Source: an uncultured Candidatus Saccharibacteria bacterium (lineage in GTDB: Bacteria > Patescibacteriota > Dojkabacteria > J137). From it: a stretch of 64,000 bases of DNA. The stretch's first letter is position 1. Each line of letters opens with the position of its first letter. Positions 4,405 through 62,910 of this stretch are shown here, in pieces. The translations under genes and the position numbers were made by a program. The DNA lies in contig CAYTGI010000005.1 of the NCBI GenBank assembly GCA_964437465.1, forward strand, positions 5,203-69,202, given 5' to 3'. The notes under the pieces are model-generated. The model did no database searches and was not told the origin of the DNA. It saw only the letters and a program-made list of their open reading frames with translations.

Positions 4405-5052
4405 CTATTTGACTACAATTCCAACTATGTAAAAAACATCACGATTTCTCTTACTCAAGATTTTCTTTCCCCAAGGTGATTCAATAAGTTCCTTTTCTTC
4501 TTCTGTTAACTTTTTTACTTCAGTAATCTTTATTCCATATTTTAGGATTTCTTTTTTAAAATCACTATTTAAATATTTTTCATTAAGTTCCGGCAGATCT
4601 CTTTCGCTTTTGAACTTCTCTTCATATTTTTCATCATAAGTTGTTACTACTTTTAACATTCCGTTATTTTTTGCAACTATAGCAATATTGCTAATAATAT
4701 TATTATCTAAATTTATAAAACCCTCTAATAAAGATCCCCAAGGAAAGTTTATCTGAACTTCATCGGCAACTGATTCAAGTTCTTTTGGAAGGTTCTCCGC
4801 AACACCATGAATAAAAACTATATTTCTTAAACCACCTTTTGCAAGTTTTCTCCTTGCTTTTCTAGAGACTTCTTCTAGCCCTTTGTAGTTTGCATCAATT
4901 CCAATATAGAAAATTCCAGGGTTATTGTAGGCTTGTTTATAGGTCTGTTTTCCATCGCCACAACCTAAATCAACGATAACTGACTTAAAACTAGGGTCAA
5001 TTTTGAGTTTTTCAACTGGATAGGTTTTCTTGCCTCTAATCTCATTAATCAT
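4405..5052 (-). CDS. NpmA/KamB-like 16S rRNA (adenine1408-N1)-methyltransferase homolog (class I SAM methyltransferase)
   Basis: Motifs VDLGCGDG, FYIGIDAN, KGGLRNIVF, LPKEL..AD, INFPWGSLLEG, VTTYDEKYEE and ITEVKKL align with the remembered NpmA/KamB pattern. Confidence 0.5.
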   Translation of the reverse strand: MINEIRGKKTYPVEKLKIDPSFKSVIVDLGCGDGKQTYKQAYNNPGIFYIGIDANYKGLEEVSRKARRKLAKGGLRNIVFIHGVAENLPKELESVADEVQINFPWGSLLEGFINLDNNIISNIAIVAKNNGMLKVVTTYDEKYEEKFKSERDLPELNEKYLNSDFKKEILKYGIKITEVKKLTEEEKELIESPWGKKILSKRNRDVFYIVGIVVK

Positions 5053-5092
5053 AAAGTAATTATAACCAATAAGTACTAAGGTACCTAGGTAC

Positions 5093-5121
5093 TTGAGTAC
5101 AATAGTATTAATTTGTATAAT
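5093..5121 (+). promoter_or_regulatory. Sigma70-like promoter (TTGAGT-N17-TATAAT)
   Basis: -35 at 5093-5098 and -10 at 5116-5121 with a 17-nt spacer. Confidence 0.45.
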
Positions 5122-14548: not shown

Positions 14549-15616
14549 ATGGAAATAATAAAGGAAAGTGATGAGAATGTAGTTAAAAAAGTTGTAAAAG
14601 TTCTTAAAAGTGGAGGGCTAGTTGTTTATCCAACTGAAACTGCTTACGGAGTTGGAGTTGATGCTACTAATAAAGATGCTGTTGGTAAACTTCTTGAATA
14701 TAAGAAAAGACCTCAAGGAAAAGCTATTTCCGTTGGAATGAATGATGAAAAAATGGCATCAGAATATGTAGAGATAAATAAGACCGCTAAAAATATCTAT
14801 AAAGAATTTCTTCCAGGACCTGTTACTGTTATCTCAAAATCAAAAGGAAAAGTTGATGCAAGATTAGAATCTGAGAAGGGTACGCTAGGTATAAGAATAC
14901 CTGATAGAAAATCAATACTGGAGATAATAGAAAAATTTAATAAACCAATAACTACTACCTCAGCTAACTCAGCTTCAAAAAAGACACCCTACTCTGTTCA
15001 AGATGTTTTAGATACCTTGAGCCAGAAACAAAAGAAGATGATAGATTTAATTATTGATGGTGGTGAACTTCCCAAAAGATTAACCTCTACTGTCATTGAT
15101 ACAACTACAGATGAATTAAAAACATATAGGCAAGGTCAGGCTAAACTTGGGAATAAAAAAGCGATTGATACCTGTAAATCCAATTCAGAACAAGAAACTA
15201 TTCTTCTTGGAGAAAAATTTATGGGAGAAAATAGGAAATATTTAAAGGAGGGTGCTGTAATTTTCTTATTAAGAGGTGATCTGGGGGCCGGGAAAACCCA
15301 TTTTACTAAGGGAATTGCTAAAGCATTAGGAATTGAGAGGAATATAAAGTCCCCTACGTATACTTATGTTGAAGAATATAATATCCCCTCTTCTAGCAAA
15401 AAGGGAATGTTTTATCATATTGACGCGTGGAAAGTTGAAACTAAAGAAGATTTACAGGCTTTTGGGTTCGAAAACTGGTTGAAGGAGGGAAATGTACTAG
15501 CAATTGAATGGCCTGAGATTTTAGAGAATTTAGGTCAAGAATTTCCAAATGCAAAGATAATAGACTTAGATTTTGAAGTAAATGGTGAGAACAATAGGCT
15601 AATTTCAGAGTATTAG
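14549..15616 (+). CDS. Fused TsaC(YrdC)-TsaE(YjeE) t6A biosynthesis protein
   Basis: N-terminal YrdC (VVYPTETAYGVGVDATN, KRPQGKAISV) and C-terminal TsaE (GDLGAGKTHFTKGIAKALGI...SPTYTYVEEY). Confidence 0.8.
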   Translation: MEIIKESDENVVKKVVKVLKSGGLVVYPTETAYGVGVDATNKDAVGKLLEYKKRPQGKAISVGMNDEKMASEYVEINKTAKNIYKEFLPGPVTVISKSKGKVDARLESEKGTLGIRIPDRKSILEIIEKFNKPITTTSANSASKKTPYSVQDVLDTLSQKQKKMIDLIIDGGELPKRLTSTVIDTTTDELKTYRQGQAKLGNKKAIDTCKSNSEQETILLGEKFMGENRKYLKEGAVIFLLRGDLGAGKTHFTKGIAKALGIERNIKSPTYTYVEEYNIPSSSKKGMFYHIDAWKVETKEDLQAFGFENWLKEGNVLAIEWPEILENLGQEFPNAKIIDLDFEVNGENNRLISEY

Positions 15617-16863
15617 TTTCCAATATATCTTTGTCGTGCTTGTTCAAACTCAGAATTATCTTGACCTTCTACAGAGCTGAATGTGTCAACCTTTTGAACA
15701 TTATTATCCCTTACATCAATTTCATAAACCTTTATCCATTTTTCTGATTCAATCTCTGACTCTGTATAGAAATACTGATAGGTAATTGTACTTTGTCCGA
15801 ATTTAAGTCCTGATTGAGGTGAGATACAAAATGTTTGATCTTTATTTAAGCAATACGAGTTAAAGTTCGCAACAATTTCTTCACTATCAACATGAAAGAT
15901 ATTACAGTCAGCCTCAGTTTCAAACTCAGATTCAGGAATACAATCACCTCGTATTCTAAATCTTCCATCATTACTTATTAAATCAGTATCCATCCTAGCT
16001 TGTTCAATCTCCTCTTCTGAGAGAAGCTTTCCGCTTTCAATTATTTTTTTGGCTAAACTAAAATCAAATCCTGTATTTATCTCAACTTGCATCTCATCAT
16101 CACTTATAACTAGATCAGCCTCAGAATTACATTCGTCTGATTCCTCATAATTTACTGAAACAATAGCATATAAATTCTCTTCAGATAACTTGTAGAAATA
16201 AATGTATGATTTGTTTTCTTCAAAAAATTCAGAAGGAAATTCAGAATCATTCGGGCATTCAGAAGTGATGATACTTTCTTTCTTAACTGGATTAGATAGA
16301 GTTTCCCCATCAAAAGCAATATCAGGAAGCTCTTCGGAAATCTCAGCATCATTCATATTCGAAGTTAATAAACTCAGATTTTCTATATAAGCAAAGGCTA
16401 AGTAACTAAAACCATCATTACCAAGGTCATATTCAAGGATTGTGTCTGAACTGATACTACTTAAAAATGGTGATTGTGTATTATTTAAAGAAGATTGAAG
16501 TACCTGCTTTCCTTCAGGATATTGGAATTCTAGCTTTAGTTCAGCATTGGTGAAAGTGTTTACTAGGTCTATGTCAGATTCTTCAAAAGGAGGAATTTCA
16601 ATAAATTCTTCTACTTCTTCACATAGCTCTTCAGTACATACCACTCCCTCCTCTGTACATTCACATTCATTACATAGATCTTCTGATTGGAACTTATCTC
16701 CAACTGAGTAGTTAAAATCATTATACTCACATACTTGTTGATCTTTTTGTATATCGGTACTTGATCTAAAGAAAACTAAGCCAATTCCAACAAAAGCTAT
16801 TATGAGAGTAATTCCTCCTAAGATGATTACTTCTTTGTTTGGTTTTTCTTTAAAATTTTTCAT
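15613..16863 (-). CDS. Membrane-anchored acidic protein with a VWC-like 6-Cys module
   Basis: TM anchor then CEYNDFNYSVGDKFQSEDLCNECECTEEGVVCTEELC; paralogous to the ORFs at 19285-21254. Confidence 0.5.
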   Translation of the reverse strand: MKNFKEKPNKEVIILGGITLIIAFVGIGLVFFRSSTDIQKDQQVCEYNDFNYSVGDKFQSEDLCNECECTEEGVVCTEELCEEVEEFIEIPPFEESDIDLVNTFTNAELKLEFQYPEGKQVLQSSLNNTQSPFLSSISSDTILEYDLGNDGFSYLAFAYIENLSLLTSNMNDAEISEELPDIAFDGETLSNPVKKESIITSECPNDSEFPSEFFEENKSYIYFYKLSEENLYAIVSVNYEESDECNSEADLVISDDEMQVEINTGFDFSLAKKIIESGKLLSEEEIEQARMDTDLISNDGRFRIRGDCIPESEFETEADCNIFHVDSEEIVANFNSYCLNKDQTFCISPQSGLKFGQSTITYQYFYTESEIESEKWIKVYEIDVRDNNVQKVDTFSSVEGQDNSEFEQARQRYIGN

Positions 16864-16941
16864 AAATCCATCTAGAAGATAATACTAGATTTTAGAAAAA
16901 TTTAGAAGAAAGGGAGAACTAAATCTCCCTTTGCTCTGGTA

Positions 16942-19194
16942 TTAATCAAATTTAATACTTTGTATTATTTGATCACATTCTGAGTAGTTATTATTGTTAG
17001 AAGAACAAGAAGCTACTAGTAACTTGTTTGAATCGTTTAAGTATCTAAAACTAGATTCAGCACAATCATTTTCCCTTGGAGCAACAATAGCTGGACAGTT
17101 GTTATCTAAGTAAACTTTATCTGTGTAGAAAACTGAATTTGTATCATTAAAGCTTACTCGATATAATTCTCCTACATTATCAATTTCTCCTATTAAAACA
17201 TAATCAGCAACTATATTTGGGTATGCCTCATAAGGAATTCCAATATCTAAAGTACTGTTCTCAGTACTAATTGTAATTCCATCAAGGTAAGTAGAATTTT
17301 CTACCACATTAAATCCGCTTGGAACAGAGAGATTATAATATTTTAACATAGCCCCAAGTGAATCTACAAAATCTTCAGTAGAAATAGTATAGGTTGTGCC
17401 ATAAGAAATTGGCTCGCCACTTAAATATCTCAAACTATTTAAAATCTCAATGACTGCTTCAAGATTTAATTCATCTACTCCTCTAACACTTACAGTACCA
17501 ACATTAACCTCAATTCCTCCAAAAATTCTTCCATTACCTTCACATAAACTAATATCTGAGTATATCTGTTGATTAACGTTGATTGGTTTTTGAGTACCAT
17601 TACATCGTCCGTCATTAGCTCTATTTGTAACAAAAAATGACAGACCATCCCCAGCAAAAGTTAGATTACTTCCTCCTTCATCTCCTGTCCCTTGAGTCTC
17701 ACAAGACCAGTTTTCAGGGATTGAGAATCCAATACCAAGAACAGAATCGTTACAAACTTTGGTAGCCTTTTCAACTTCTCCAATAGCTTCTATACTATTG
17801 AAAAATTCGATAGCCTCTTGATTATCATTTAAGAATGTATCGATCTCAATAACTTTATTTCCATATTGAAATAAATATTTATTAGGGAAGAAATCGGCTA
17901 TTCCAACAATACCTAACTTTGTAACATTTGTACCAAAAAGAGTAATCTCTTCTTGGGCGGTTATTCCATAGTTAGCTATACCTGTTGGTTGCTCAGCATA
18001 AATCCTCTCAAGCTCACTTATTCTATTTTGAACAGCTCCGTTACTATATGTAACTAGTACAAGAGACTCATCTACACAACCAAGTCCACATGGAAACCCA
18101 ACAAATCTTTCAGGAGTATAGAAAATTGTCAATGAATTACCATTCTCAAACTCGTTTTCTTGTATAACAAAGAATTTATTTTCAGTTGTAAATTGATCCT
18201 CCCCAGTTATAAATTCAATACCTTCATAGCTATCTTGTTTTGGTAAATTAAAGCTAATACCGTATTCTTCATAGGTGAATTTTTCAAAGGAAGTATTTAT
18301 TTCATTATCTTCATCCTGTTCTTGAACAATAGGGGTTGGCTCAGGTTCTGGGGCAGGCTGATTGTTATTAACAGCAACAGCACCAATGCCAATTCCAGCA
18401 CTTGCAAGTAAAATAGAACTACCAGCTATAATTTTAGCTGTTGTTGTGGCTAGTAAACCTCCACTAGCAGAGGCTGTAGCAACAGAACTTCCAGAAGAAG
18501 CTCCAATAGCGGCACCTGCAGCAGCACCAGTTAAATTTGTCATATTTGTTAAAGTAACACCTAAAGTAGATCCAACAGCTGAAGCAATAGCAGCCGAGCT
18601 CGAAGCGGTCATTGCATAAGCAGGTTGGACAGAAACACCTAATATTCCAGCTAGAATAATAGGTATAGAAACAGTTTTTAAAGCTAGAGATTTTTCTTCT
18701 CTAGAGACTGACAATTTAAGATCTTCAATCCCTCTATAAAATCTTTTCTTAACAGAATCAACACCCATTTCAACAATTGAAGCTATTTCATTAAAGCTCA
18801 TTTCATCCCAGATTCTCATAATAATAATATCTGAGGTCACTTCATCCATATCTTTTAATTTTTCTTCAATGTATTCAATTGTTAACCCATTCACCACTTC
18901 ATCTTCGAATGAGCTCATGCTCTTCTCAACCTCTTCCTCGAAATTTTCTGTATGAGTAGTATCTTTCGTGCTTTTTTTAGTTTGTTGGTTATAAATCATA
19001 TTTCGACTTACTTTAAAGAGCCAAGCTCTTTTGTTTTCAATAAAATCAAATTCCTCATTTTCAAATAAAGCAATAAACGCTTCAGATGCAATATCTTGAG
19101 CTTCTTCATTATTTCCAAGCCGAAACTTACAAAATCTGAAAATTTCAGGTGAATGCTCTTTATATACTTTTTCGAAAACTTGTTCTTTGTTCAT
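16942..19194 (-). CDS. ECF sigma factor fused through TM / low-complexity segment(s) to a large C-terminal domain
   Basis: Sigma70 region 2 (FRFCKFRLGNNEEAQDIASEAF) and region 4 (IIIMRIWDEMSFNEIASIVEMGVDSVKKRF), then a hydrophobic, Ala/Gly/Ser-rich segment and a ~480-aa domain. Confidence 0.7.
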   Translation of the reverse strand: MNKEQVFEKVYKEHSPEIFRFCKFRLGNNEEAQDIASEAFIALFENEEFDFIENKRAWLFKVSRNMIYNQQTKKSTKDTTHTENFEEEVEKSMSSFEDEVVNGLTIEYIEEKLKDMDEVTSDIIIMRIWDEMSFNEIASIVEMGVDSVKKRFYRGIEDLKLSVSREEKSLALKTVSIPIILAGILGVSVQPAYAMTASSSAAIASAVGSTLGVTLTNMTNLTGAAAGAAIGASSGSSVATASASGGLLATTTAKIIAGSSILLASAGIGIGAVAVNNNQPAPEPEPTPIVQEQDEDNEINTSFEKFTYEEYGISFNLPKQDSYEGIEFITGEDQFTTENKFFVIQENEFENGNSLTIFYTPERFVGFPCGLGCVDESLVLVTYSNGAVQNRISELERIYAEQPTGIANYGITAQEEITLFGTNVTKLGIVGIADFFPNKYLFQYGNKVIEIDTFLNDNQEAIEFFNSIEAIGEVEKATKVCNDSVLGIGFSIPENWSCETQGTGDEGGSNLTFAGDGLSFFVTNRANDGRCNGTQKPINVNQQIYSDISLCEGNGRIFGGIEVNVGTVSVRGVDELNLEAVIEILNSLRYLSGEPISYGTTYTISTEDFVDSLGAMLKYYNLSVPSGFNVVENSTYLDGITISTENSTLDIGIPYEAYPNIVADYVLIGEIDNVGELYRVSFNDTNSVFYTDKVYLDNNCPAIVAPRENDCAESSFRYLNDSNKLLVASCSSNNNNYSECDQIIQSIKFD

Positions 19195-19284
19195 TTATCT
19201 ATAAGTCAAAATAAAATAAAAAAAGTGACAAAAATATAAAAAAGGCCATCAATAAAGATAGCCTTAAATATTTGTAAAATTTTA

Positions 19285-19596
19285 CTATCTTCTACTTCTT
19301 TCCTGTCTTTCTAGTGAATCAATAATTCCTTGTACTGCACCGTCATCGATAACTTGATCGCACATTAATTCTGTACACAAAACTTCTCCATTAGCACAAA
19401 CACACTGGTTACATGAATCACCTGCAGGGAAATTATTTCCAGTTTTATACATTGCTCCATTATATTGACATGTATTATTACCCCTTTCTAAAAAGCCTTC
19501 ACTATCAATAACCATAAATCCTAGAGCAAGAGCTAATATAACCGCAAAAGTTGTAATTACAGCCATAATTAGCATTGGCGAACTTGGTTTTTTCAT
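19285..19596 (-). CDS. Small membrane-anchored VWC-like cysteine-module protein
   Basis: CQYNGAMYKTGNNFPAGDSCNQCVCANGEVLCTELMC. Confidence 0.5.
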   Translation of the reverse strand: MKKPSSPMLIMAVITTFAVILALALGFMVIDSEGFLERGNNTCQYNGAMYKTGNNFPAGDSCNQCVCANGEVLCTELMCDQVIDDGAVQGIIDSLERQERSRR

Positions 19597-19614
19597 TTAG
19601 TTAAGAATAATAAA

Positions 19615-20400
19615 TTAAAATGTCATTCTAGAGATAATTTCGTCAGCCTCATTCATATTAATTTCGCTATCTGCTGACCCTGAAATCTCAATATATCCTC
19701 TATCAACTCCTCCCTCAGTTAAATATCCAAGTTCGGAAAGTATTAAGCTTGTCTCTAGGCAGCCATCAGAAGCTTGAGCTGAGTTCTCATTAACAGACAG
19801 ATATTGATAATCAGGATTGTCGCTTGTAAGTATTCTGGATATATCATCAGTAATATCTGCTCTACTTTCAATCTCACAGCTAAATCCAAAAACACTTGAA
19901 GGAGCTGAAGGTATTACAGCATTCATTGTTAATTCTGTATCTTTTTCTATGTGGCTCAGAACGTGTAATTCTTCATTATCGCTAAGATCAGAAGTTAATT
20001 CCCATATACAATTATTGTATGAAAAAGTAAACTCTGGGAGTATAGTGCTTTCATATTGAATGTCATTACACTCTGTTTCATCATCAAAAAATTCACTAGT
20101 TTCGTTAGGTGGCAAGGTATTTTCATCATTATCTACTAAGTAAGAGTCATTTCCTTCTGCTTTACAATCTATTTCGGTACAAGCAACATCACCATCAGAA
20201 CAAGTACACGTATTGCATCCATCCCCTGCATTAAAACTTTCACTCGAATCGTACATTACACCATTATATTGGCATGAAGAAATAGGATTTGGTTTTAAGG
20301 CATCTTGGCTTTGTAGAATGTAGTAACCTAAAACAAGACTAATAATTACAAAGAATCCAGCGATAAGAGAGACAATTGTTAGTTGTGTTTGTTTATTCAT
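19615..20400 (-). CDS. Membrane-anchored VWC-like module + acidic domain protein
   Basis: CQYNGVMYDSSESFNAGDGCNTCTCSDGDVACTEIDC. Confidence 0.5.
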   Translation of the reverse strand: MNKQTQLTIVSLIAGFFVIISLVLGYYILQSQDALKPNPISSCQYNGVMYDSSESFNAGDGCNTCTCSDGDVACTEIDCKAEGNDSYLVDNDENTLPPNETSEFFDDETECNDIQYESTILPEFTFSYNNCIWELTSDLSDNEELHVLSHIEKDTELTMNAVIPSAPSSVFGFSCEIESRADITDDISRILTSDNPDYQYLSVNENSAQASDGCLETSLILSELGYLTEGGVDRGYIEISGSADSEINMNEADEIISRMTF

Positions 20401-20402
20401 AA

Positions 20403-21254
20403 TTAAATTTTTGTGATAGTATTTAAAATTCCGAATTGTTTTAGAATATCATCAGTTTGAAGTTGTTGTTCAATAGCTTCTTCAAGAGAGGCAGCATCAG
20501 GTATGTTACCGAAGCAATCGTTATATCCTCCATCAATTCTGATAATTGCTACAATATCTTCATAAAGAGGATAATGGTATAAATTAGTTATAAAATTCCT
20601 ATACCCTTGATTAGGGTCCTCAAAGTCACATGGAACTCCTTCTCTGTTAGATCCTTTTATTGGAATTATTTCTTGATTATCAACTTCTACTATGGGTAAT
20701 TCCTCAGTTATGTCAGTTATCTTATATGCTCTTGTAAAAACATCTTCTTCAGTAAAAATATCCTCAGTTATTGAAATTTCTAAGCTGTACTTTACGTAAG
20801 TATCTCCATCTTCAGTCAGGTCAGTTTTAATCAGCCTTAGGAAATCCTCCTTCGGTTCTCCTTCAATCTCAAAGTCATCAGGATAAAAAAAACTAAAGCC
20901 TAATTCCTCCGATTCAAAGTAATTATTAAAAGTAAAAATGCTGCTTCCAATTGTGATTTCTTTTTCTTCTATAACCCCATTATGTTCCACTAAATAGCTG
21001 TCATTTTCTTCACTTTTACAATCAATCTCAGTACATATAACCTCACCATCTGCACAAACGCATTGATTACATCCATCCGCAGCGTTGAAACTCTCACTAG
21101 ACTCGTAAGTAACTCCATTATACTGACATGACGTAGGTCCATTATTTGTCTGCATGTCTTGCTCAATAACATTAAACCCAGCAAAAAGGGCTACACCGAT
21201 TGCAATTGTAACTATTACAACTACTGCGATTGTTGGTTTATCATATTTTGACAT
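20403..21254 (-). CDS. Membrane-anchored VWC-like module + acidic domain protein
   Basis: CQYNGVTYESSESFNAADGCNQCVCADGEVICTEIDC. Confidence 0.5.
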   Translation of the reverse strand: MSKYDKPTIAVVVIVTIAIGVALFAGFNVIEQDMQTNNGPTSCQYNGVTYESSESFNAADGCNQCVCADGEVICTEIDCKSEENDSYLVEHNGVIEEKEITIGSSIFTFNNYFESEELGFSFFYPDDFEIEGEPKEDFLRLIKTDLTEDGDTYVKYSLEISITEDIFTEEDVFTRAYKITDITEELPIVEVDNQEIIPIKGSNREGVPCDFEDPNQGYRNFITNLYHYPLYEDIVAIIRIDGGYNDCFGNIPDAASLEEAIEQQLQTDDILKQFGILNTITKI

Positions 21255-28857: not shown

Positions 28858-28897
28858 GGTACATTGGTACATTGGTACATTGGTACATTGGTACTTA
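28858..28897. repeat. (GGTACATT)x5 octamer tandem repeat
   Basis: Five near-perfect copies that abut the stop of ORF 28895-29155. Confidence 0.9.
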
Positions 28898-30313: not shown

Positions 30314-30369
30314 GGTACGTTGGTACGTTGGTACGTTGGTACGTTGGTACGTTGGTACGTTGGTACATG
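30314..30369. repeat. (GGTACGTT)x6 + GGTACATG octamer tandem repeat
   Basis: Perfect tandem copies between TA modules. Confidence 0.9.
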
Positions 30370-30390: not shown

Positions 30391-30789
30391 CTAAATTATT
30401 GCTTTGTCGTAATTCTTAAGAATCTTTTTGTCTGCAGTAGCTAATTTTGAATTACTTAATAACGCTTCTGAAGTAATAATTCGATCAAATGGGTCTCGTG
30501 TCCAAGAAATTGTTTTCACAATTTTGATTAGGTCGCTAAGCTTTGAATCCCTTACTTCAAGTCCAAGTTCAATTTCAAGTGTATGAATTATGTCTTCAGG
30601 TTTGACTGTTATCTTTTTTAAATCAAAAAGATATTGAAGCTCTAATTCTATGAAACTGCTTATGAAGAGTGGGTGTTTGTTTAATTAATTCTTGCACTTT
30701 AGAGAGAATCTGCTTACCTCACCAGCATACAAAAATATTACAGCGTTAGTATCTAGGTAAACTAGTTCAGATTTTCTTTTTCTTTCCAT
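30391..30789 (-). pseudogene. VapC-like PIN-domain toxin with an in-frame TAA (+ coordinates 30685-30687)
   Basis: MERKRKSELVYLDTNAVIFLYAGEVSRFSLKCKN*LNKHPLF...ISWTRDPFDRIITSEALLSNSKLATADKKIL, i.e. the PIN D-T-N and C-terminal acidic motifs. Confidence 0.55.
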
Positions 30790-31016
30790 TCTGAATCTAT
30801 ATCAAAAGTTTTAATCTTGGGGATGTCTTTAAAGCTCGTATTCTGACCTAAAATATTTCTTTTCTTAAGATTATTGAGCTTATCTGTAGGTTTATTCTTG
30901 GAAATTATAACAGTCTCGCCGTTTTTTTCTATTTCTACAGGTATTCCTGTTTCGATAACACTATCTATTACCTTATAAATCTTTTTTCTTAATTCTGTAG
31001 TAGTTAAAGTTTTCAT
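30762..31016 (-). CDS. Phd/YefM-like antitoxin
   Basis: TTELRKKIYKVIDSVIETGIPVEIEKNGETVIIS; the toxin start overlaps its 3' end. Confidence 0.5.
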   Translation of the reverse strand: MKTLTTTELRKKIYKVIDSVIETGIPVEIEKNGETVIISKNKPTDKLNNLKKRNILGQNTSFKDIPKIKTFDIDSEWKEKENLN

Positions 31017-31266: not shown

Positions 31267-31296
31267 TTGTCAACTTAGTGTTTGAGGTGATATAAT
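31267..31296 (+). promoter_or_regulatory. Strong sigma70-like promoter (TTGTCA-N18-TATAAT) in a 450-bp non-coding stretch
   Basis: Consensus hexamers. Just upstream lies a GC hairpin, ctcccctgctaggggag. Confidence 0.4.
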
Positions 31297-31847
31297 TACT
31301 ATGTCTTCGAAATGTAATTTATTACTTTCAAGACTTTGAAAATAAAAATACTCTATTAAAAGTCTAAGTACTTTATAGATATATGATTCCTATAAGACTT
31401 TTTGTTTTTTAGGATGAACCCTACTACGCCAAGGCTTCGTAGGGAGATCATTAACAACTGAGATGTAATACTTTAAAAACTATAAATGATTATTCATTTT
31501 AGTTGTTAAAGTTTTGCGAAAAATTTTCTTTTGGAAGGAATAGTTATTTTACCCCTTTTTACGGTAAGTTTTGGGCTTAATGAGTTCAGAATTTACCGTA
31601 AAAATAAAAGGGTAATGTAGCTTCCACCCTTCCCAGGAGAATAAAAAAGGGAAAAAGGAAAGATTAAGCCTATGCTTAATCAAAAATCCGGTATCCGCTA
31701 CAGGATATGCAGTCCGGCTGGGACTATCTTCCAATAGATAAAGGAAGAAAGTCAAAGTACTTGCGCTAGTTTAGGCAAGGAACAAACCAGGCAAGACAGA
31801 GTCATATTCGAATCGAAAGCACATCAAACGAGGTATACAGAAACATC

Positions 31848-33098
31848 ATGATGAAATTTAGCACGATCCTAGTAGTACTGGCACTCCTGATGCTGTCCGC
31901 TGTGAGCGTGAACGCACAGGACGACGAACCTGAATCAACACCCGCGACGGTTACCTTGGATTATTTCAGCGGCGAAAGTATCGCGCAGTCCCCGGACGGC
32001 ACGTTTGAAATCGTGGTTCACGAAGAAGGCACAGCGTTGTGGTCCGATAGCACCAATGGCAGCCTGATCACTGAAGATCTGGCTTTCGACGCGATGGTGA
32101 ACGACGCTGGGCAATTCGCTTTGCTTATTGCACACGATGAAAGCGGTGAGTTGATCACAGGCGATCTTGCCGACGTGGCGTTTGGCACTCTCTCATACGA
32201 AGAAGGTTACTTCACTCGACTCGCAATGTCGTGGAATAGCGCAATTTGTGTTGAGCAGATCGACTTCAACGCCAATCGTATTCAGCTTGAGCATGAAGAC
32301 ACTGCGGAAATCGAATGTGCCTCGCGGTTTTCCGGCGATCTGTGGTCCGATGCTTTCGACATATATGTCGCACAGTACAACGAGTCTCCGGCGACCTACC
32401 AGAGCGTGGACGAAGAATTCGTTCTCACCGAAAGCGTGACCTTCAGGACTGAAGACATGTCATTGGTTGTCAACGGAATGACATTCCAAATCATGCTGGA
32501 CGGTAGCTTCCTGCAACACATCTACGGCGTCGAAAATGGCTCATTAACAATCTGGACAACAGAAGGGGTATATACAGGACAACTCCGCGACTATGTTGAT
32601 GTTACCCAGGCTGTGTTTGAACCGGCTATGGTTTTAAGCGTGGCTGAAAACGGGTGTGCGCTCCGAATCATGGAGGCGACTGGTACTGTTATTTTACTGA
32701 GCCAACAAGGCTATAACTTCGCCGGTTGCGACGAGATTGATGCGCAAGAAGGTTTTGAACTCGCAATGAACGTGCACCCCCCGATGATTGAAACTCCTCC
32801 AACGGTACATTACGACATGTCCAATCAGACGGAAGCCTGCTGGATTCGCATCGGCATCGGCGATTCTTTGGCGATAATCGAAGAAGATCAGAACTATGAT
32901 GAGATTTTCAGCGTCATGGACTTCGAGATTCGCTCTGATCAGAACAATTCATCGTTCAGGTACCCAAGCAACCTTCCAGAAGGGTGGAACGGACTATTCA
33001 ACCAGTACACTACGGCAGGTGGGCCAGAAGACCTCATCAGCTTGAATGGTGCTTTTGAAGACCCTGAGTCAGGCACGCCCTACTGCTCGGCTGATTAA
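31848..33098 (+). CDS. GC-rich secreted acidic protein (likely horizontally acquired)
   Basis: Signal peptide MMKFSTILVVLALLMLSAVSVNAQ. GC content and codon usage are markedly higher than in the rest of the window. Confidence 0.6.
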   Translation: MMKFSTILVVLALLMLSAVSVNAQDDEPESTPATVTLDYFSGESIAQSPDGTFEIVVHEEGTALWSDSTNGSLITEDLAFDAMVNDAGQFALLIAHDESGELITGDLADVAFGTLSYEEGYFTRLAMSWNSAICVEQIDFNANRIQLEHEDTAEIECASRFSGDLWSDAFDIYVAQYNESPATYQSVDEEFVLTESVTFRTEDMSLVVNGMTFQIMLDGSFLQHIYGVENGSLTIWTTEGVYTGQLRDYVDVTQAVFEPAMVLSVAENGCALRIMEATGTVILLSQQGYNFAGCDEIDAQEGFELAMNVHPPMIETPPTVHYDMSNQTEACWIRIGIGDSLAIIEEDQNYDEIFSVMDFEIRSDQNNSSFRYPSNLPEGWNGLFNQYTTAGGPEDLISLNGAFEDPESGTPYCSAD

Positions 33099-33124
33099 AA
33101 GTCTCGCCCCTGGCCATTGACGGA

Positions 33125-33157
33125 CCTAAAGCGCTTACATAGGCTTTAGGTTTTTTC
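33125..33157 (+). terminator. Rho-independent terminator
   Basis: cctaaagc-gcttacatag-gctttagg followed by T6. Confidence 0.6.
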
Positions 33158-33339
33158 GAGAGAAGGGTCGGCTTATACAGCGATTCTTCTTTCCCATTCT
33201 TTAGGAATCCTATTTAGGATATCTAAAGAAAAATCTTTACCCCCTTTCTTTTGAAAAAAAGAAATTAGCTTCGCAGCATCTCAGTTTGTTACACCGTCCG
33301 AGTACTGAAGTACCAAAGTACCTATGTACTTAAGTACCT

Positions 33340-33702
33340 TTATACCTTCGTACTATAAAATGTCTTTAATTTCCTCAGCATATGAATAACCTCCTTCGTT
33401 TTCTTATCTATTTCTTCGTAATTTTCGCTTGTCAAGTATTGTAGATCTTTACTTAATTTTAGAAAATACCCTAGCTCATAAGCTGACGCTAGAGATATAC
33501 TTAAAAATCTTATAAATTCCTTCCTACTATCTCTACTACTCCCCTCTACAATATTTGAGGGAATAGAATAGCTTGCCCTTCGCATTTGACTAACTAATCC
33601 GTACTGTTCTGTTTTAGGAAATGATTTAGTAGAAGTGTAAATATTAATTGTAAGGTTATGTGAATATTCCCACACCTTTAGCTTAGTATAATCGTGCATC
33701 AT
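33340..33702 (-). CDS. Four-helix-bundle protein (23S rRNA IVS / Avd-like family)
   Basis: LKVWEYSHNLTINIY...FPKTEQYGLVSQMRRASYSIPSNIVEGSSR matches the family signature. Confidence 0.65.
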   Translation of the reverse strand: MMHDYTKLKVWEYSHNLTINIYTSTKSFPKTEQYGLVSQMRRASYSIPSNIVEGSSRDSRKEFIRFLSISLASAYELGYFLKLSKDLQYLTSENYEEIDKKTKEVIHMLRKLKTFYSTKV

Positions 33703-33768
33703 GTTTTCGTTAATAGTTAAACATGGGGAATACTCTAGTACCTGAGTACATTAGTACTTGTATACATT

Positions 33769-34104
33769 CTACATCACAAGCATCTCGTTAATGATGGATT
33801 TTATCTGACTAATTATTTTCTTATCGGCCTTGTCTATTTGGCTGAAAATACGCTTTTTATCTACTGTTCTTATTTGATCAAGCATAATCCATCCAGTTCT
33901 ATTTTCTACTTTCACCTTTATTCTTGTTGGGTAATCTTTTGACTTAGAAGTTATAGGAGCGATTATTATAGTTCTGAGATTAAAATTCATCTCATTTGGA
34001 GAAATTACAATACACGGTCTTGTCTTTTTTATCTCTGAGCCTATTGTAGGATCTAAATTTATCCAGTAAATAGTATATTGTTCTATTCGTTGTCCCATGC
34101 CCAC
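33769..34104 (-). CDS. mazF: MazF/PemK-family mRNA interferase toxin
   Basis: YWINLDPTIGSEIKKTRPCIVIS...APITS...LDQIRTVDKKR. Confidence 0.7.
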   Translation of the reverse strand: MGMGQRIEQYTIYWINLDPTIGSEIKKTRPCIVISPNEMNFNLRTIIIAPITSKSKDYPTRIKVKVENRTGWIMLDQIRTVDKKRIFSQIDKADKKIISQIKSIINEMLVM

Positions 34105-34340
34105 TCTTCATTATCCAAATCTATATTATCCTCCAAAACATCTTCATTAGATTCGTGCATTTTCTTAAATGCATTGTTCCATCCAGATCTAGGAGATTTT
34201 TTCAGTGGGGTTAGCGTAATAATACCATTTTCTTTTTTTATTTCTAGCTCTTCTTTTAAGTCTAATTTCATTTCCTCAAGCAAAACAGAAGGGATTCTAA
34301 TTCCCTTTGAATTTCCAATTTTTACTATTTTTGTATTCAT
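34083..34340 (-). CDS. mazE: MazE/AbrB-type antitoxin
   Basis: KIVKIGNSKGIRIPSVLLEEM SpoVT/AbrB fold with an acidic tail; overlaps mazF. Confidence 0.65.
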   Translation of the reverse strand: MNTKIVKIGNSKGIRIPSVLLEEMKLDLKEELEIKKENGIITLTPLKKSPRSGWNNAFKKMHESNEDVLEDNIDLDNEEWAWDNE

Positions 34341-34643
34341 AAGATATTTTAACGTAATTACAATGTGAGTACAAGTAGGTATTTCTGAGTCTGGCGATTT
34401 ACGAGCGAAGCGAAGTAATCTCGCTAGGTTTATCGATAAGCTTAGTGAGGCTGCTTCGTCACTAGGCTCCTCGCAGACCGCCTTGAAGTCATCACACTGA
34501 GCCTGCCTGCAGGTAGGCAGGGCTCTCTAAGGGTGGTATAAAATTATAGGCACGATCATGGTTCGAGAACCTCACCATGACATAATGAGAATTGCAAAAA
34601 AAGACCTATCGGGATATGATTTACTATATTAATAAACATTTTT

Positions 34644-45294: not shown

Positions 45295-48200
45295 TTTAAG
45301 ACGTACACTTTTAACGTTTATTTCGCATGCTTAGTTTTTTTACTATCAGCATCTAGTATTGAGGCTGCAAGCAATACAATAGATTTTCAAGGAAAGATAG
45401 TGAATAAAGGTGATGGAACGAATTTAGTGTCTGGAAGTCCTGCATGTGTAGTAGTTGGGGCAGATACTTGTGATTTTAGAGTAAGAGTTTACGATGCTTC
45501 TAGTGGTGGAAACTTACTTTTTGAAGAAGAACATACAAATTTAGAGATTGGAGATTACAATGGGATTTTTAATTTAAGTATTAATAGTATCTGTGCTTCT
45601 ACTCTGAGTGGTGGAGTTGATTGGGGAACAGGAGGATGTATTAGTAACGGTTGTGTAGATTTTAGTAGTACTAATGTGTATTTTGAGATAAGTTTTCACC
45701 TGCAGGAGATTCTACATACACAGAAACATTTACAAGAAAACAAATTAGCCAGACACCAAGCGCATATTATGCTGAAAGAGCGGGGAGTGTTGGTGATTTA
45801 AATGGATTTAATGAAACTGATTTTGTTCAGTTTGGTCAGGGTAGTACTCAAACAAGTACAAATACTAATGGTTTAATTAATATAACAACTACAGGTAATG
45901 TTGTTAGTCCTTTAATATTTCTTAATGAAAACTGGGCAGGTACTCCCCTACTTTTAGATTTACAGGAAGGGGGATCGACTCAATTCAGTATAGGAAATAA
46001 TGGAGTAATAACTTCTGATTCTTTAGCTGGAGGAGGGGTTCAATGTTTACAGTCAGATAACAGTGGGATAATCTCAGCTACGGGTTCAGCATGTGCGGGA
46101 AGTTCTCCCTGGACAATAGATATGAGTGACATTTACTATAACGGAGGAAATGTTGCTATTGGAACTGGAGCCCCAGGAGCCACTTTATTCCACGTTCAAG
46201 AAAATACTACAGGTTTACCAACATTTGGAAGCGACACTTCCTCTGCCTTTTCAAGTATTAATGACACGTATTTAGCTATAATTTCGGGAGCGGCGAATAT
46301 ATCTGGAATTAATTTTGGAGACAATAGTGATGAAAATCCTGGAATAATAGCGTATAACAATGCTTCAGATTCATTTGTGTTTACAACTGGAACATCAACA
46401 GCATTGACAATAGCTTCTGGGGGAGGACTTACTGCTAATAGTTTGGCTGGAGGTGGAACACAATGCTTGCAAGTAGATAATGCTGGATTAATTGCTGGAA
46501 GCGGTTCAGGATGTGCAACAAGTCTATGGACAGATGGAGGAACAACTACCTACTTAACTTCAACAACAGATGATGTTGCATTTGGAGGAACTGGAGGCTC
46601 TTCTCCATTCTTCTTTGATGTAAGTGATCCGTCGATAAATATTAATAGCACACAGGTTTTATACCTTCCAGATCAAACTACATTTGCGGGATCTTTGATT
46701 ATTGGTAATGGTGGGACTAGTTTGAGTACCTCCACTAATTCTACAGGTGTTGGTATTGGAGCTTTAACTAGCCTTTCATCTGGATCAAGTAACACAGCTG
46801 TTGGAACAAATTCATTGACATTAAACTCTACTGGAGCAACTAATGTTGCTATAGGAGCATCAGCTCTGTCTGGAATTGCTGATGGTTTTGCAAATGTTGC
46901 AGTAGGTACATTTTCAATGGAATTAAAGTCATCAGGAAATCACAATATAGCAATTGGAGGGCAATCGATGTATAGGAGTTTTTCAGGTGCAAATAATATA
47001 GCAGTTGGATCCTCCGCACTATATAATAATAGTTCAGATTCAAATGTGGGTATTGGATATAATGCAGGCTATAGAGTTAATGGAGATGATAATATTATTA
47101 TTGGAGATAATGCAGGAGCAGGTATTGGGTCATCGACAACTACGTACTCAATAAGTAATAACGTCTTGGTTGGGACAAGGGCAGGTCAGATAATGGGTAC
47201 TAATGCTAACAATAATATTTTAATTGGACATCAAGCAGGTAATAATTTATCTATTGGAGCTAACAATATTGTAATTGGGTATGACATCGATGCACCAAGC
47301 TCTTCAGGCTCAAATAGAATGAGTATTGGGAATATAATCTATGCAACAGGAGTTGATGGCACAGGGACAACAGTAAGTACAGGAAATCTTGGAATTGGGA
47401 TTGCAAATCCAGATAGTAATACTGAACTTCATATATACGATCCAGGAAACACAATACTGGGTATACAATCTGGGGCTCAGTCTATATGGGGTATAGAATC
47501 CTTATCAGCTTCTAATGCCATGAGGATTGGTAATTTAAATGGGGCTGTCCTAAACAATCATGTATATATAACTTCAGGAGGTAATGTTGGGATTGGGGAT
47601 GTTCCTTTAGATAAGCTACATGTATTTGGAGATGCTAGGGTTGGAACAGGAACAACTGGTTGTATTAAAGATGCAGATGGCACTACTATAGCAGGTACAT
47701 GTAGCTCTGATTTGAGATTAAAGGAAGAAATTAGAGGATTTGATTCAATATTAGAAAGATATGTACAATTAGAACCTGTATTTTATAAATGGCGATCTGA
47801 AGAATTCCCTGAATTACATCTTGGAACTAGTGAAATTAGTGGGTTAATTGCACAGAATGTTGAACAATTATTTCCAGAACTAGTTGCATATGATGAAGAT
47901 GGATTCAGACAAATTAATTTTTCAGCGATAGACTTTTATACAATTCAAGCAATAAAAGAACAGCAAGAACAAATTGATAGCTTACAGGCTCAACTGGCAA
48001 GTATTAGTAGTAATCCACCTGGATCACAACCATTAGAACATGCAATTTTAAACAATCTAACAATTAGAGAAAACTTGAACATAGAAGGAAAATTGAATCT
48101 TGCTGATGACTCAGCTGATGTAATAGAAATTCCTGCAGGAGATGTTGAGTTTTCTTATACATTTAACACCGCTTACTCCTCTACTCCTATTGTATCTATA

Positions 48201-48341
48201 ACTCCAATTTCTGAAGAGGTGCTTAGTGAAGGTATCGTTTATATTGTAACTAATTCTGATCAAAACGGTTTTACTATAAAATTAAATCAACCAGCATCAG
48301 TTAATATCTCTTTCAACTGGACTGCTTTTGGGGACCTTTAA
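45295..48341 (+). CDS. Giant tail-fibre-like surface protein, paralog A (frameshifted at the T4 run 45694-45697; no canonical start)
   Basis: The N-terminal domain is paralogous to 48421-53124 (GKIVNKGDGTN...CDFRVRVYDASSGGN). Reading T5 at 45694-45697 joins it to ORF 46122-48341. Contains Gly-rich N-x-A-I/V-G repeats and a C-terminal S74-like intramolecular chaperone motif, SDLRLKEEI...GLIAQNVE. Confidence 0.5.
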
Positions 48342-48420
48342 ACTATCCACATAAACTTTTCATTTCAAAATATTGAAGTTAGAAAAATTAATACCTATAC
48401 TAATATAGGCACATTTTTAT

Positions 48421-51400
48421 ATGTGTAGAGTAATGAATCAGATTAGTAACATAAAGCGTAAAAACAACGCTCTTTATTCAGGGTCTAAAAAAAGGCCTGT
48501 TTTAGCTCGTCAACACAAGTTTGCTATTCCATTAGCAATTTTATCTGGACTGCTATTTTTATTATTTATTCTTATAAACACAGGAGGGTTATATTCTTTC
48601 TTAAATATTTTCGCTGCTACAAGAACTATAAATTTTTCAGGAAAGATTGTTAATAAGGATGATGGAACTAATGTTGTTCTTGGTGATCCTGCTTGTGTTT
48701 TAGCAGGAGCAGATACATGTGATTTTAGAGTTAGAATTTTTGATGCAATAAGTGGAGGAAATCAGCTTTTCCAAGAAGATCATAATGATATTGAGATTGG
48801 TGATTTTACAGGAATATTTACTCTTGATATTAACTCAATTTGTAATTCTCAGGTAGTTGGAACAGTAGACTGGGCTACAACAGCTTGTGTAAGTAACGGA
48901 GGAGTTGATTTTAGTAGTTCAAGTATTTATATAGAGATCTCATTTTCTCCAGCTGGAGATGGAACTTATACTGAGGTTTTTGGAAGACGGGCTTTTAGTA
49001 ATACAGCGAGTGCATTTTTTGCCGAAAGAGCTGGAAGTTTGAATGGATTGACTAGTGATGATTTTGTTCAGCTAGCACAGGGAACCACTCAAGTTAACAG
49101 TGATGATTTTAGCTTAATAGATATTGAGACAACAGGAAATTTAACTGATCCTCTAATTGTTGTTAATGAGAATGGAGCGGGAACTCCTGACCTTTTTGAT
49201 TTTCAAGTGGGGGGGGACTCGATATTTACTTTAGATAACGATGGATTATTATCACTGTCAAATGATCAAGGGGTAACGAATTTAAGTATTGAAGAGTCAA
49301 ATGCAACTAACGATAACCGTACTTTATTAAGTTTAATAAACAATGGAGGAGCTATAATTTCTTTGGAAGATACTGATTCTTCAACGCAAGCTTGGAATAT
49401 CATAGGTAGTGATGAATTTACTATAAAGAACGATGCGACACCCGCAAATGACTTATTAAAAATCGATGATTTAGGCAACGCCTACATGTTTAATGGACTT
49501 ACTATTAATGATGGTTTTGATTCTTCTACAATCTCAGCTATTTTAAACTTTGGAGGCGCAAATACTGAAACAATTGAGTGGTCAGCTCCTAACAGTAGAT
49601 TTGAAATCTCCGACGATTTAGATGTGTTTAATAGCTTAACTGTAGGTGATAGTGTTGGAATTGGTACTCAAAGTCCTTCAGAAGCTTTAGATGTTGTGGG
49701 ATCTGTTCAGCTAAGTGGTGATATAAAAACTACTAACCCTTCTCAGTTATTACCAGCAAATTCTTTAGACTATGTGAAAAACATTCCTAATTCAAGAGGA
49801 GGAGTTTCAGGAGATCCAATAAGTCAGTTTGACTTTGAATTAACAGATAATGAGTACTTTTTAGTAGGAGCATTTAGTGGATCTGTTGATTTTGATACTG
49901 ATAATAGTATTCCTGGTGACACCTTAACAAGTCAAGGCACAGATGGTTTTATTGCAAAATACAATCTCAACGGAACTCTTCAATGGATAAAACAGATTGA
50001 GGGTTCATCCATTGAATCTGTCACAGAGGTAGAAACTGATTCAGCTGGAAATATATATGTCTTAGGTAATTTCTCTTCAAGTAATGTTGATATTGATCCA
50101 GATAACTCAGTTTCTGGAGATACCTTAAGTGAATCTGGAGGAAGAACATTTTTAGCAAAATATAATAGCTCAGGAGTTCTACAATGGGTTAAGCAGATGG
50201 GTCAAAGTGGATTTCTATACATAGTTGGGAATGACATGTACGTTAACGATTCAGGAGATATTCATTTCACTGGATATTTCTATGGAGGAATCTCAATAGA
50301 CTTCGATCCTGATAATGTAGTTGTTAACGATACTCATTCAACTACTAGTTTCACTGAAGGCGATGCTTTTTTAGCAAAATATAACACAAACGGTCTAATT
50401 CAATGGGTACATGCAATAGGGACAACAAATGACACCCTTCGAGACAGCGGTAAAAAAGTTTTTGCTGATTCCGGAGGAGATGTGATTCTTGTAGGTGATG
50501 CAAGTCAAGGATTATTTGATTTTGATGAATATAACGTAGGATCTGATGATACCTTTGACTTTTCGACCGGTGAAGGAATATTTATTGTTAAATATAATTC
50601 TTCTGGAGTTGCTCAATGGTCAAAAGGATTAATTGATAATGGTGGACAATTAAACTCTGGAGTAGTAATTGCTGATTCCTCAAATAATATCTACTACACA
50701 GGAGGCCTACAAGGCACATCAAATGACTTTGATGATGATAATGTTGTAGCTGGAGACACTTTAAACCAGATAAATGGGGTTGATTCATTTTTGGTGAAAT
50801 ATGACTCAAGTGGATTACTTCAATGGGCAAAAGCTTTGGATATCAGTAGAACCAATGCTTTAGACATAACACCTTCTGGAGAAGTTTTAGTTGGAGGTAC
50901 ATTTAATACGACTCCAGATTTTGATCCTGATAATGTTGTTAGCGGTGATACAGTTGCTGCAGTTGGTGTTAAAGATATATTTTTTGCTAAATACGATTCA
51001 ACAGGCCTTTTAACAGAGTTGAAAACTATAGGTACTTCAGGGCAAAATGCAAATTTATCTCATATTGCTATTGACTCAAGTTCAAATATATATACCCAAG
51101 CTTCTTACCTTGGTACTATCGATATGGACTCTGATATAGTTATTTCTGGAGATACTATTTCATCATCTACCACGAATGGATATTATATTGCTAGATATTC
51201 ATCATCTACTCAATCAATAGCAGGATCAAACATAGGATCGTCTTCTAGCCCTTTTGGAAATACATATACAAATGCTTTAAACATTTCCGCTATTACTGGA
51301 TCAACTCAATGTTTGGAGATAGACACAAATGGAAATGTATCTGGATCTGGAATTACTTGCGGAGGTCTTTGGACTGCAAACGGAAGCGATATTTACTACG

Positions 51401-62664: not shown

Positions 62665-62910
62665 GTTCAAAGTATAAAAAGTACTTATGTACTTAAGTAC
62701 CTAGGTACTTGTGTACTATATATTCTTTGAGGACTACTCAATGGCAGTGGTACCACCTCTATTTCCCGATGAAGAATCGGAACACTTATTACAGCTATTT
62801 CGGGCATACCCGGAGGATTTTACTACTTTCGGTTCTTTCCTCAGCACACCTGTGACAAGCAAGTGTATTGCTTAACAGATTATATCTTAGTTTTTTACTA
62901 CGTGCCAGAA

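Follow-up and report, generated by a model that had tools for sequence, protein, structure and literature searches.

Where does a GC-rich gene embedded in an AT-rich bacterial chromosome come from, and does it belong there at all? This question is raised by a stretch of 64 kb from contig CAYTGI010000005.1 (assembly GCA_964437465.1), hereafter called the window, which belongs to a Candidatus Dojkabacteria chromosome with a guanine plus cytosine (GC) content of ~33% (Candidate Phyla Radiation, CPR; Patescibacteria). The open reading frame (ORF) at 31848-33098 on the + strand, comprising 416 codons plus stop and referred to here as the orphan gene, had been described in an earlier note on this DNA as a foreign gene that was either acquired horizontally or placed there by a chimeric assembly. 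Our analysis favors the former. The Dojkabacteria chromosome has probably acquired, in the recent past, a ~1.5-kb single-gene segment from a bacterium of ~50% GC.

The foreign character of this segment is most evident from its base composition. The 1-kb interval 32001-33000 has a GC content of 0.496, whereas all other 1-kb intervals of the window range from 0.26 to 0.40. In a 150-nt profile, GC amounts to 0.45-0.55 across ~31775-33200 and to 0.31-0.37 on both sides. The limits of the block were set by a log-odds maximal-segment scan with 100 shuffles as the null, which places the maximal GC segment at 31688-33172 (1485 bp, GC 0.500). Its score of 85.2 compares with a shuffle maximum of 14.8, and the rest of the 64-kb window holds no second segment above the null. 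The block so delimited consists of an A-rich leader, the ORF and a terminator, and its right edge is abrupt, with the change in composition occurring within ~30 nt of 33172.

Codon usage, tabulated along with GC by codon position for the gene taken from the ORF list, departs from that of the host in the same way. The orphan ORF has a GC content of 0.505 (0.549, 0.391 and 0.576 at the first, second and third codon position, respectively). For comparison, the 50 other window ORFs of at least 100 amino acids (aa) have a GC content of 0.338 ± 0.026 and a third-position GC (GC3) of 0.228 ± 0.038 with a maximum of 0.338, which gives the orphan z-scores of 6.5 for GC and 9.3 for GC3. Moreover, for almost all amino acids its preference among synonymous codons is the reverse of the host's (orphan versus host: Arg AGA 0 versus 0.71; Gly GGC 0.45 versus 0.06; Ser AGC 0.43 versus 0.09; Ile ATC 0.58 versus 0.13; Leu CTG plus CTC 0.51 versus 0.07). 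The block is compositionally foreign and unameliorated. The sliding-window GC and codon analyses that the earlier note had proposed were thus run, and they bear out its description of a GC-rich gene with GC-rich third positions and deviant codon usage; the deviation is significant by both measures.

The ORF at 31848-33098 is a real protein gene, as its length, a coding-like GC periodicity, a signal peptide and a terminator closely behind the stop codon attest. The chance probability of a 416-codon ORF at 50% GC is approximately (61/64)^416, or ~2e-9 per start, and the five other frames over the block contain no ORF longer than 90 aa. The codon-position pattern, GC3 > GC1 > GC2 (third, first and second position), is coding-like. 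Starting 27 nt past the stop codon, an intrinsic terminator occupies 33125-33157 (+ strand; CCTAAAGC(G)C..(G)GCTTTAGG followed by TTTTTT), in which a hairpin of 11-13 bp (33125-33150) precedes the T6 tract. The RNA of the terminator region (33096-33170) folds with -24.5 kcal/mol (z = -2.5). This terminator, which the earlier note had recognized as the gene's own, is single-copy in the window and was skipped by the consensus terminator scan because its loop exceeds the 8 nt of that scan.

The translation, together with the ORF list, also bears out the prediction of a secreted acidic protein of 416 aa. Residues 1-23 (31848-31916, + strand) form a predicted Sec-type signal peptide, read by eye from the translation (MMK, FSTILVVLALLMLSAV and SVNA, followed by QDD). 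It has a positive n-region, a 16-residue hydrophobic core and small residues at -3 and -1, with a predicted signal peptidase I site after VNA (Ala23) and no lipobox Cys; the orphan protein hence shows every element of a tripartite Sec signal. Its sequence shows neither another hydrophobic segment nor a sorting motif. The mature protein of 393 aa (31917-33095, + strand), which was characterized by its composition, self-BLAST and family searches, contains 71 Asp plus Glu (18%), 9 Arg, no Lys and 6 Cys and has an isoelectric point (pI) of ~4.05. The probability of finding no Lys in 393 residues is ~1e-12 at the host mean Lys content of 6.7% and ~0.01 at 1.1%, the content of the host's most Lys-poor protein. 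Self-BLAST detects no internal repeats.

The surroundings of the block are those of a housekeeping region. The window encodes TatD, two aminoacyl-tRNA synthetases, Sua5/TsaE, thioredoxin and its reductase, translation initiation factor IF-2, FtsW/RodA, rpoB, rpoC and NifU, and its RpoB shares 89% identity with the RpoB of the Candidatus Dojkabacteria metagenome-assembled genome (MAG) HKST-UBA09 (locus L001). L001 is collinear with the window over FtsW (53% aa identity), a PIN-Phd pair (47 and 54%), a 250-aa membrane protein (60%), a ~100-aa protein (56%) and then rpoB. Between Phd and the 250-aa gene, the slot measures 2.6 kb in L001 and holds three unrelated genes with a GC content of 0.29-0.37 throughout. 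In the window, the same slot measures 3.6 kb and holds the GC-rich gene, a four-helix protein of the 23S rRNA intervening sequence (IVS) type and a MazEF module. In L001, the one comparator for this slot, the orphan is absent from the syntenic position, and tblastn against L001 finds nothing. The orphan gene lies in a hypervariable islet rich in toxin-antitoxin (TA) genes with conserved genes on both sides, and it is missing from the nearest relative. Furthermore, no paralog was found in the window by BLAST or in L001 by tblastn. Paralogy with one of the acidic proteins of the host, of which one is also 416 aa long, was considered and ruled out as they share no similarity. The unique and unameliorated composition, the absence from the nearest relative, the hypervariable islet and the lack of a paralog argue together for horizontal acquisition, as the earlier note had proposed.

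Searches for relatives and for a donor were negative. In a word-indexed protein search of 5.8 billion clusters, the orphan protein matches itself only (P0001), and an exhaustive phmmer search of 1.84 billion representatives returns the orphan and two giant repeat surface proteins (P0002 and P0003). The E-values of the latter (5e-8 and 2e-5) are inflated by 10 and 6 tandem copies; each repeat copy aligns to residues 41-104 of the orphan with ~29 bits, 33-37% identity and a pairwise E of ~1e-3. AlphaFold2 run on the single sequence, i.e., with no alignment, yields no confident fold (predicted local distance difference test score, pLDDT, 33 for the full-length and 32 for the mature protein) and places mostly β-strands of low confidence in residues 41-104. 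At most, this region may hint at an immunoglobulin (Ig)-like β-sandwich. There is no credible homolog among ~15 billion proteins, and profiles from Pfam, NCBIfam, PHROGs and PADLOC give no family at E ≤ 1-10. Scans of viral and metagenome contigs reveal no homolog, nor do phages, plasmids and E. coli genomes match by blastn or tblastn. The best match among PDB sequences (E ~0.1, nanobodies) was dismissed as spurious. The BLAST search for donor taxonomy suggested in the earlier note thus returned neither a homolog nor a donor, be it outside the recipient clade or in any other part of the protein, metagenome, viral, phage, plasmid and E. coli collections. Of the high-GC source which that note had envisaged, the foreign composition stands, but the donor looks like an organism of ~50% GC rather than a high-GC one.

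Several other explanations of the block have to be weighed against an acquisition. The gene might be native to Dojkabacteria, its odd composition being kept by selection or by a local mutational bias, and its acidity and low Lys content indeed resemble those of host surface proteins (pI ~4.05, Lys 1.1-2.5%). However, GC3 lies 9 standard deviations off the host and the inverted synonymous choices are beyond the reach of amino-acid composition. The non-coding leader and the terminator are GC-enriched as well, and neither L001 nor any Patescibacteria protein among the 15 billion sequences provides an ortholog, which together make a native origin very unlikely. A GC-rich structured RNA or another non-coding element with a chance ORF would accord with a protein that has neither a homolog nor a confident predicted fold, and GC-rich islands in AT-rich genomes are often RNA genes. 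Yet Rfam at gathering and permissive thresholds and ARAGORN detect no relevant RNA in the block, including tRNA and transfer-messenger RNA (tmRNA); the microRNA and small nucleolar RNA models returned at E ≥ 0.03 are spurious. Given also the improbability of so long an ORF, the short ORFs of the five other frames and the gene-like features described above, this explanation is hardly credible. An assembly chimera, in which 1.5 kb from another ~50%-GC organism of the sample was mis-joined into the Dojkabacteria contig, would account for the abrupt right edge, and the organism has come from one sample only. The Logan contig SRR7048222_832089 (L082, 1529 bp), however, is 100% identical and gapless to 32625-34153 of the window. 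It spans MazF, the IVS gene, a GTAC array, the terminator and the last 474 nt of the GC-rich ORF, including ~980 nt of AT-rich host DNA, and the product of the IVS gene (P0004) is also present in the Logan assembly. A second assembler thus reproduces the right junction, so that a chimera becomes unlikely. Moreover, for an internal insert, two wrong joins would have had to occur and to lead back to the same syntenic spot (FtsW/PIN-Phd on the left, the 250-aa gene/rpoB on the right), and genome-specific GTAC arrays lie on both sides. The chimeric assembly raised in the earlier note is therefore disfavored, and we regard it as highly improbable.

The remaining alternative concerns the mode of entry: the block could be the cargo of a mobile element that moved by site-specific recombination, such as an integron cassette, a non-autonomous IS200/IS605 or a miniature inverted-repeat transposable element (MITE)-like unit, a prophage remnant or the target of a diversity-generating retroelement (DGR). 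In favor of this, the unit is compact, with hairpins at its borders (31542-31622, 31662-31681 and 33125-33150), and sits among TA modules like the cassettes of chromosomal integrons, and the neighboring protein encoded at 33340-33702 resembles bAvd weakly (1e-07). This score of 32.8 bits is below the cut-off of 40, however, and the same protein fits 23S_rRNA_IVP far better (1.3e-38). A Pfam scan of 40 ORFs in the window, which covers 64 kb of the 77,459-bp source contig and leaves ~13 kb outside, reveals no integrase, transposase, TnpB, reverse transcriptase (RT) or phage gene, and the orphan has no phage or plasmid matches. The window contains no tRNA as a target for insertion. Terminal inverted repeats (TIR), target site duplications (TSD) or attachment (att) sites are not apparent, as direct and inverted alignments between the flanks score 23-24 and those of shuffles 20 ± 2.4. 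The attC cores GTTRRRY/RYYYAAC are absent from 31530-31700 and 33095-33200, each boundary hairpin occurs once in the window and in none of the fetched loci, and no diverged repeat of any part of 31540-33300, which could indicate a template and variable repeat (TR/VR) pair, occurs elsewhere in the window. The individual candidates were accordingly rejected: the DGR target for lack of an RT domain and a TR/VR pair, and the integron cassette, insertion sequence (IS), MITE and IS200/IS605-type element since a recombinase, attC core, TIR, TSD and repeated ends are all missing. As a whole, mobile cargo is an unlikely account of the block.

Acquisition of the segment from a ~50%-GC bacterium is hence the reading we follow, with a number of points that weigh against it or against parts of it. 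The comparator for the slot is one genome, and a fairly distant one at that (RpoB 89%, neighbors 47-60% identical), and the fetched loci include no precise empty site; L002 and L003 begin inside rpoB and the upstream region lies outside both. Since no donor or homolog was found, the direction and source of the transfer are suggested by composition alone. L082 may stem from the same reads as the MAG, in which case it represents an independent assembler and not independent data. At the left junction, look-ups via the Phd antitoxin and a 68-aa ORF gave no Logan record, a circumstance which also favors the chimera. The host appears to lack Shine-Dalgarno (SD) motifs and is possibly leaderless, as opposed to the long leader of the orphan, which bears on the predicted expression in this host. 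Finally, a role of the protein outside the cell, though most likely, is drawn from the signal peptide and the composition only.

Beyond an intact, foreign and Sec-targeted gene, the following model is what we infer. The segment, an A-rich leader with a 416-codon ORF and its own intrinsic terminator, would have entered by DNA uptake and illegitimate or micro-homology recombination and landed in the hypervariable, TA-rich slot that separates the Phd antitoxin from the conserved genes preceding rpoB. The neighboring TA modules might mark, and perhaps stabilize, a permissive insertion zone. Uptake is plausible in the light of a survey of 125 aquifer Patescibacteria genomes, in which competence and pilus genes are common and proposed as routes of gene acquisition (PMC12455944). 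Transcription would start from the imported leader or reach the gene by read-through from 31267-31296 via a + strand-specific hairpin. The pre-protein would then be exported by Sec and cleaved after Ala23 to yield an exoprotein that is soluble, highly acidic and free of lysine, and probably β-rich and disulfide-bonded (6 Cys). Most likely it would act extracellularly, on the cell surface or where the cell meets a partner.

Inside the block, the leader at 31688-31847 (+ strand) is A-rich with an AT skew of +0.27 to +0.36 and a GC content of ~0.43, and it is weakly structured (31688-31870, z = -2.4). GAGG lies 14 nt ahead of the ATG and TATACA ends 8 nt ahead of it. Directly left of the block, a near-perfect hairpin of 81 nt with host-like GC occupies 31542-31622 (+ strand; -38.3 kcal/mol, z = -8.1). 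The structured 5′ leader reported in the earlier note exists insofar as this strong hairpin does, but the hairpin lies outside the block in host-like DNA and the leader within the block is weak. On the - strand, the same hairpin reaches only -20.9 kcal/mol because of G·U pairs, and its far greater stability as + strand RNA implies transcription in the sense direction. It lacks a U-tract, which rules out a canonical terminator, is single-copy in the window and lies ~250 nt downstream of a promoter-like site. Possibly, the hairpin is part of an unannotated small RNA or represents a processing site. The promoter-like site at 31267-31296 (+ strand) is a strong sigma-70-like match of 11/12 (TTGTCA, an 18-nt spacer and a TG-extended TATAAT) that faces the hairpin and the orphan gene ~550 nt upstream of its ATG. 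In the region around it, promoter consensus matches are no more common than in shuffles, and we regard it as a lead, i.e., a candidate host promoter that may drive read-through expression.

Translation initiation in the host seems to follow a different rule. In 49 of the 50 host ORFs of at least 100 aa, none of the motifs AGGA, GGAG and GAGG occurs within 25 nt upstream of the start, which suggests that leaderless, SD-independent initiation may be the rule in this Dojkabacteria genome. In several host ORFs, TATAAT ends 5-8 nt before the start codon (e.g., starts 7895, 14549, 26559, 35471 and 4405 on the - strand).

The charge profile of the orphan protein can be compared with those of host proteins. 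Several large host surface proteins are equally acidic and Lys-poor (pI ~4.05, Lys 1.1-2.5%), and cytoplasmic proteins of the host are not unusually acidic (pI 5.6 for RpoB and 6.1 for RpoC). The orphan matches the acidic surface proteins in this profile and thus suits the extracellular milieu of the organism, which makes a role outside the cell, at the surface or at a partner interface, the most likely one.

The window contains further acidic proteins. Two very large ones of 739 and 1567 aa, Lys-poor and with a pI of ~4.05, are encoded at 46122-53124 (+ strand). Each carries a Peptidase_S74 intramolecular-chaperone domain, which is typical of phage tail-fiber or endosialidase-like proteins; they are probably surface fibers of the CPR cell. 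At 15613-21254 (- strand) lie four adjacent genes (15613-16863, 19285-19596, 19615-20400 and 20403-21254). Three of the products have a pI of ~4.05, and each has a Cys-rich motif of the VWC/pacifastin-like type near the N-terminus (residues ~43-84). A 750-aa protein with N-terminal sigma-70 regions 2 and 4 is encoded between these genes (16942-19194).

The genes next to the block are those of the host. On the left (30397-31016), the window contains a Phd/YefM antitoxin (30762-31016, - strand; Pfam PF02604, 1.1e-07; 54% identical to the L001 Phd by tblastn) and a PIN toxin pseudogene (30397-30789, - strand; 47% identical over 131 aa to the L001 PIN by tblastn, with a stop), which are orthologous to the intact PIN-Phd pair of L001 and identify this flank as host-native. 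The PIN gene is interrupted by a single in-frame TAA (+ strand 30685-30687) and is otherwise conserved, while the antitoxin is intact; such a fresh toxin pseudogene beside an intact antitoxin is a hint of local turnover. On the right, the genes of the 23S-rRNA-IVS four-helix-bundle protein (33340-33702; Pfam PF05635, 23S_rRNA_IVP), the MazF/PemK toxin (33769-34104; PF02452, 2.5e-30) and the MazE antitoxin (34083-34340; PF04014, 1.9e-06), all on the - strand, have host-like GC. These Pfam matches and a motif scan substantiate the claim that TA modules and GTAC repeats flank the orphan gene. All four neighboring proteins tested are singletons at the level of 90% clusters, and a metagenome scan with the conserved 250-aa neighbor found one distant contig of 1.7 kb. 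Between mazE and the 250-aa gene lies an intergenic element (34385-34590) with a GC content of 0.55 over 152 nt and several strong hairpins (fold z = -3.5), a candidate for a novel small RNA. Rfam gives no match to it even at E ≤ 1 and blastn detects no similarity to L001, and no tRNA, tmRNA or Rfam family at the gathering threshold was found in the 64-kb window.

The GTAC repeats deserve a closer description, as they tie the flanks of the block to one genome. Six arrays of (GTACNNNN)n, each with 3-7 GTAC motifs at a spacing of exactly 8 bp, are located at 5073-5100, 28859-28894, 30315-30366, 33302-33337, 33738-33757 and 62681-62716, and the window has 17 overlapping matches to GTACNNNNGTACNNNNGTAC where 0 are expected. 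The arrays are absent from L001 and 80 other fetched loci, the exception being L082. They are thus genome-specific and occur on both sides of the block, with the host-type (GTACNNNN)5 array at 33302-33337 as its right flank. Four arrays sit 11-36 nt upstream of - strand starts (5052, 30294, 33702 and 62670), behind which lie the NpmA-like gene, a ribbon-helix-helix (RHH)-like ORF, the 23S-IVS protein and isoleucyl-tRNA synthetase (IleRS). The array at 33302-33337 is followed by no - strand ORF of at least 20 aa before the block, whereas four of the five other arrays have a gene. Speculatively, the incoming DNA may have replaced a gene here. The 8-bp tandem boxes recall MetJ-type operators for RHH proteins, and RHH-like ORFs adjoin several arrays. 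The NpmA-like gene (4405-5052, - strand) encodes an NpmA-family 16S rRNA (adenine1408-N1) methyltransferase (PF24675, 3.2e-55) and has host-like GC; enzymes of this family are of the aminoglycoside-resistance type.

What would the acquisition of the orphan gene mean? It would be a clean, unameliorated gene capture between phyla by an ultra-small CPR bacterium, an event of a class that is rare (PMC12455944). A donor in the same sample, if found, would hint at a physical partner of this Dojkabacteria lineage. No host or partner of Dojkabacteria is known to have been identified. One can go further and picture the orphan as the founding member of a new family of lysine-free, hyper-acidic exoproteins that an episymbiotic Dojkabacteria cell captured from its host or partner bacterium and uses at the cell-cell interface. 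We consider this an unlikely proposition; were it true, adhesion, mimicry of a surface or a decoy function would be possible roles, and the signature of ~50% GC with C-ending and GAA-rich codons would be a pointer to the identity of the partner. The protein itself, relative-free among ~15 billion sequences, lysine-free and acidic, is a candidate for structural and functional study. In genome curation, this GC anomaly should be kept and not cut out as contamination. The wider impact of the case is modest, as it concerns one orphan gene in one MAG.

Compositionally defined horizontal acquisition in CPR genomes is a well-documented phenomenon, and the locus can be compared with several known systems. 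In Patescibacteria, islands and horizontal gene transfer are frequent, with hundreds of islands and transfers, and recent transfers from other phyla are rare; the MetaCHIP step used in that survey for single-gene transfers needs the donor in the data set (PMC12455944). The orphan block shares with these islands the atypical composition, the streamlined CPR chromosome, the position in a variable region and the plausibility of uptake, and the donor may likewise be a co-occurring or partner organism (PMC12455944). It differs in being a single gene with no detectable donor or family and no mobility genes, and in its apparently very recent arrival from outside Patescibacteria, the class reported as rare (PMC12455944). 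With secreted ORFan proteins, the orphan has in common the intact ORF with a signal peptide, the lack of relatives and the location in an accessory region. ORFan proteins are common and usually have a host-like, often AT-rich composition, whereas the orphan lies 17 GC points above its host, which argues that it was not born in situ.

The block also resembles the cassettes of sedentary chromosomal integrons in that it is a compact one-gene unit with a downstream hairpin among TA modules in a variable array. It lacks IntI (among the window ORFs scanned), attI, attC cores and repeated sites, and the hairpin is an ordinary T-tract terminator. At the level of the protein, residues 41-104 align at 33-37% identity with the Ig-like, PKD-like or Cna-B-type repeats of P0002 and P0003, and mostly β-strands are predicted there at low confidence. 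With ~29 bits per copy and no Pfam domain, membership in this group is not established. The orphan can also be compared with the acidic, Lys-poor exoproteins of halophiles and alkaliphiles and of the host surface, with which it shares a pI of ~4, 18% Asp plus Glu and a large excess of Arg over Lys. Even compared with the most Lys-poor proteins of the host (1.1-2.5%), the orphan is more extreme, having no Lys in 393 residues.

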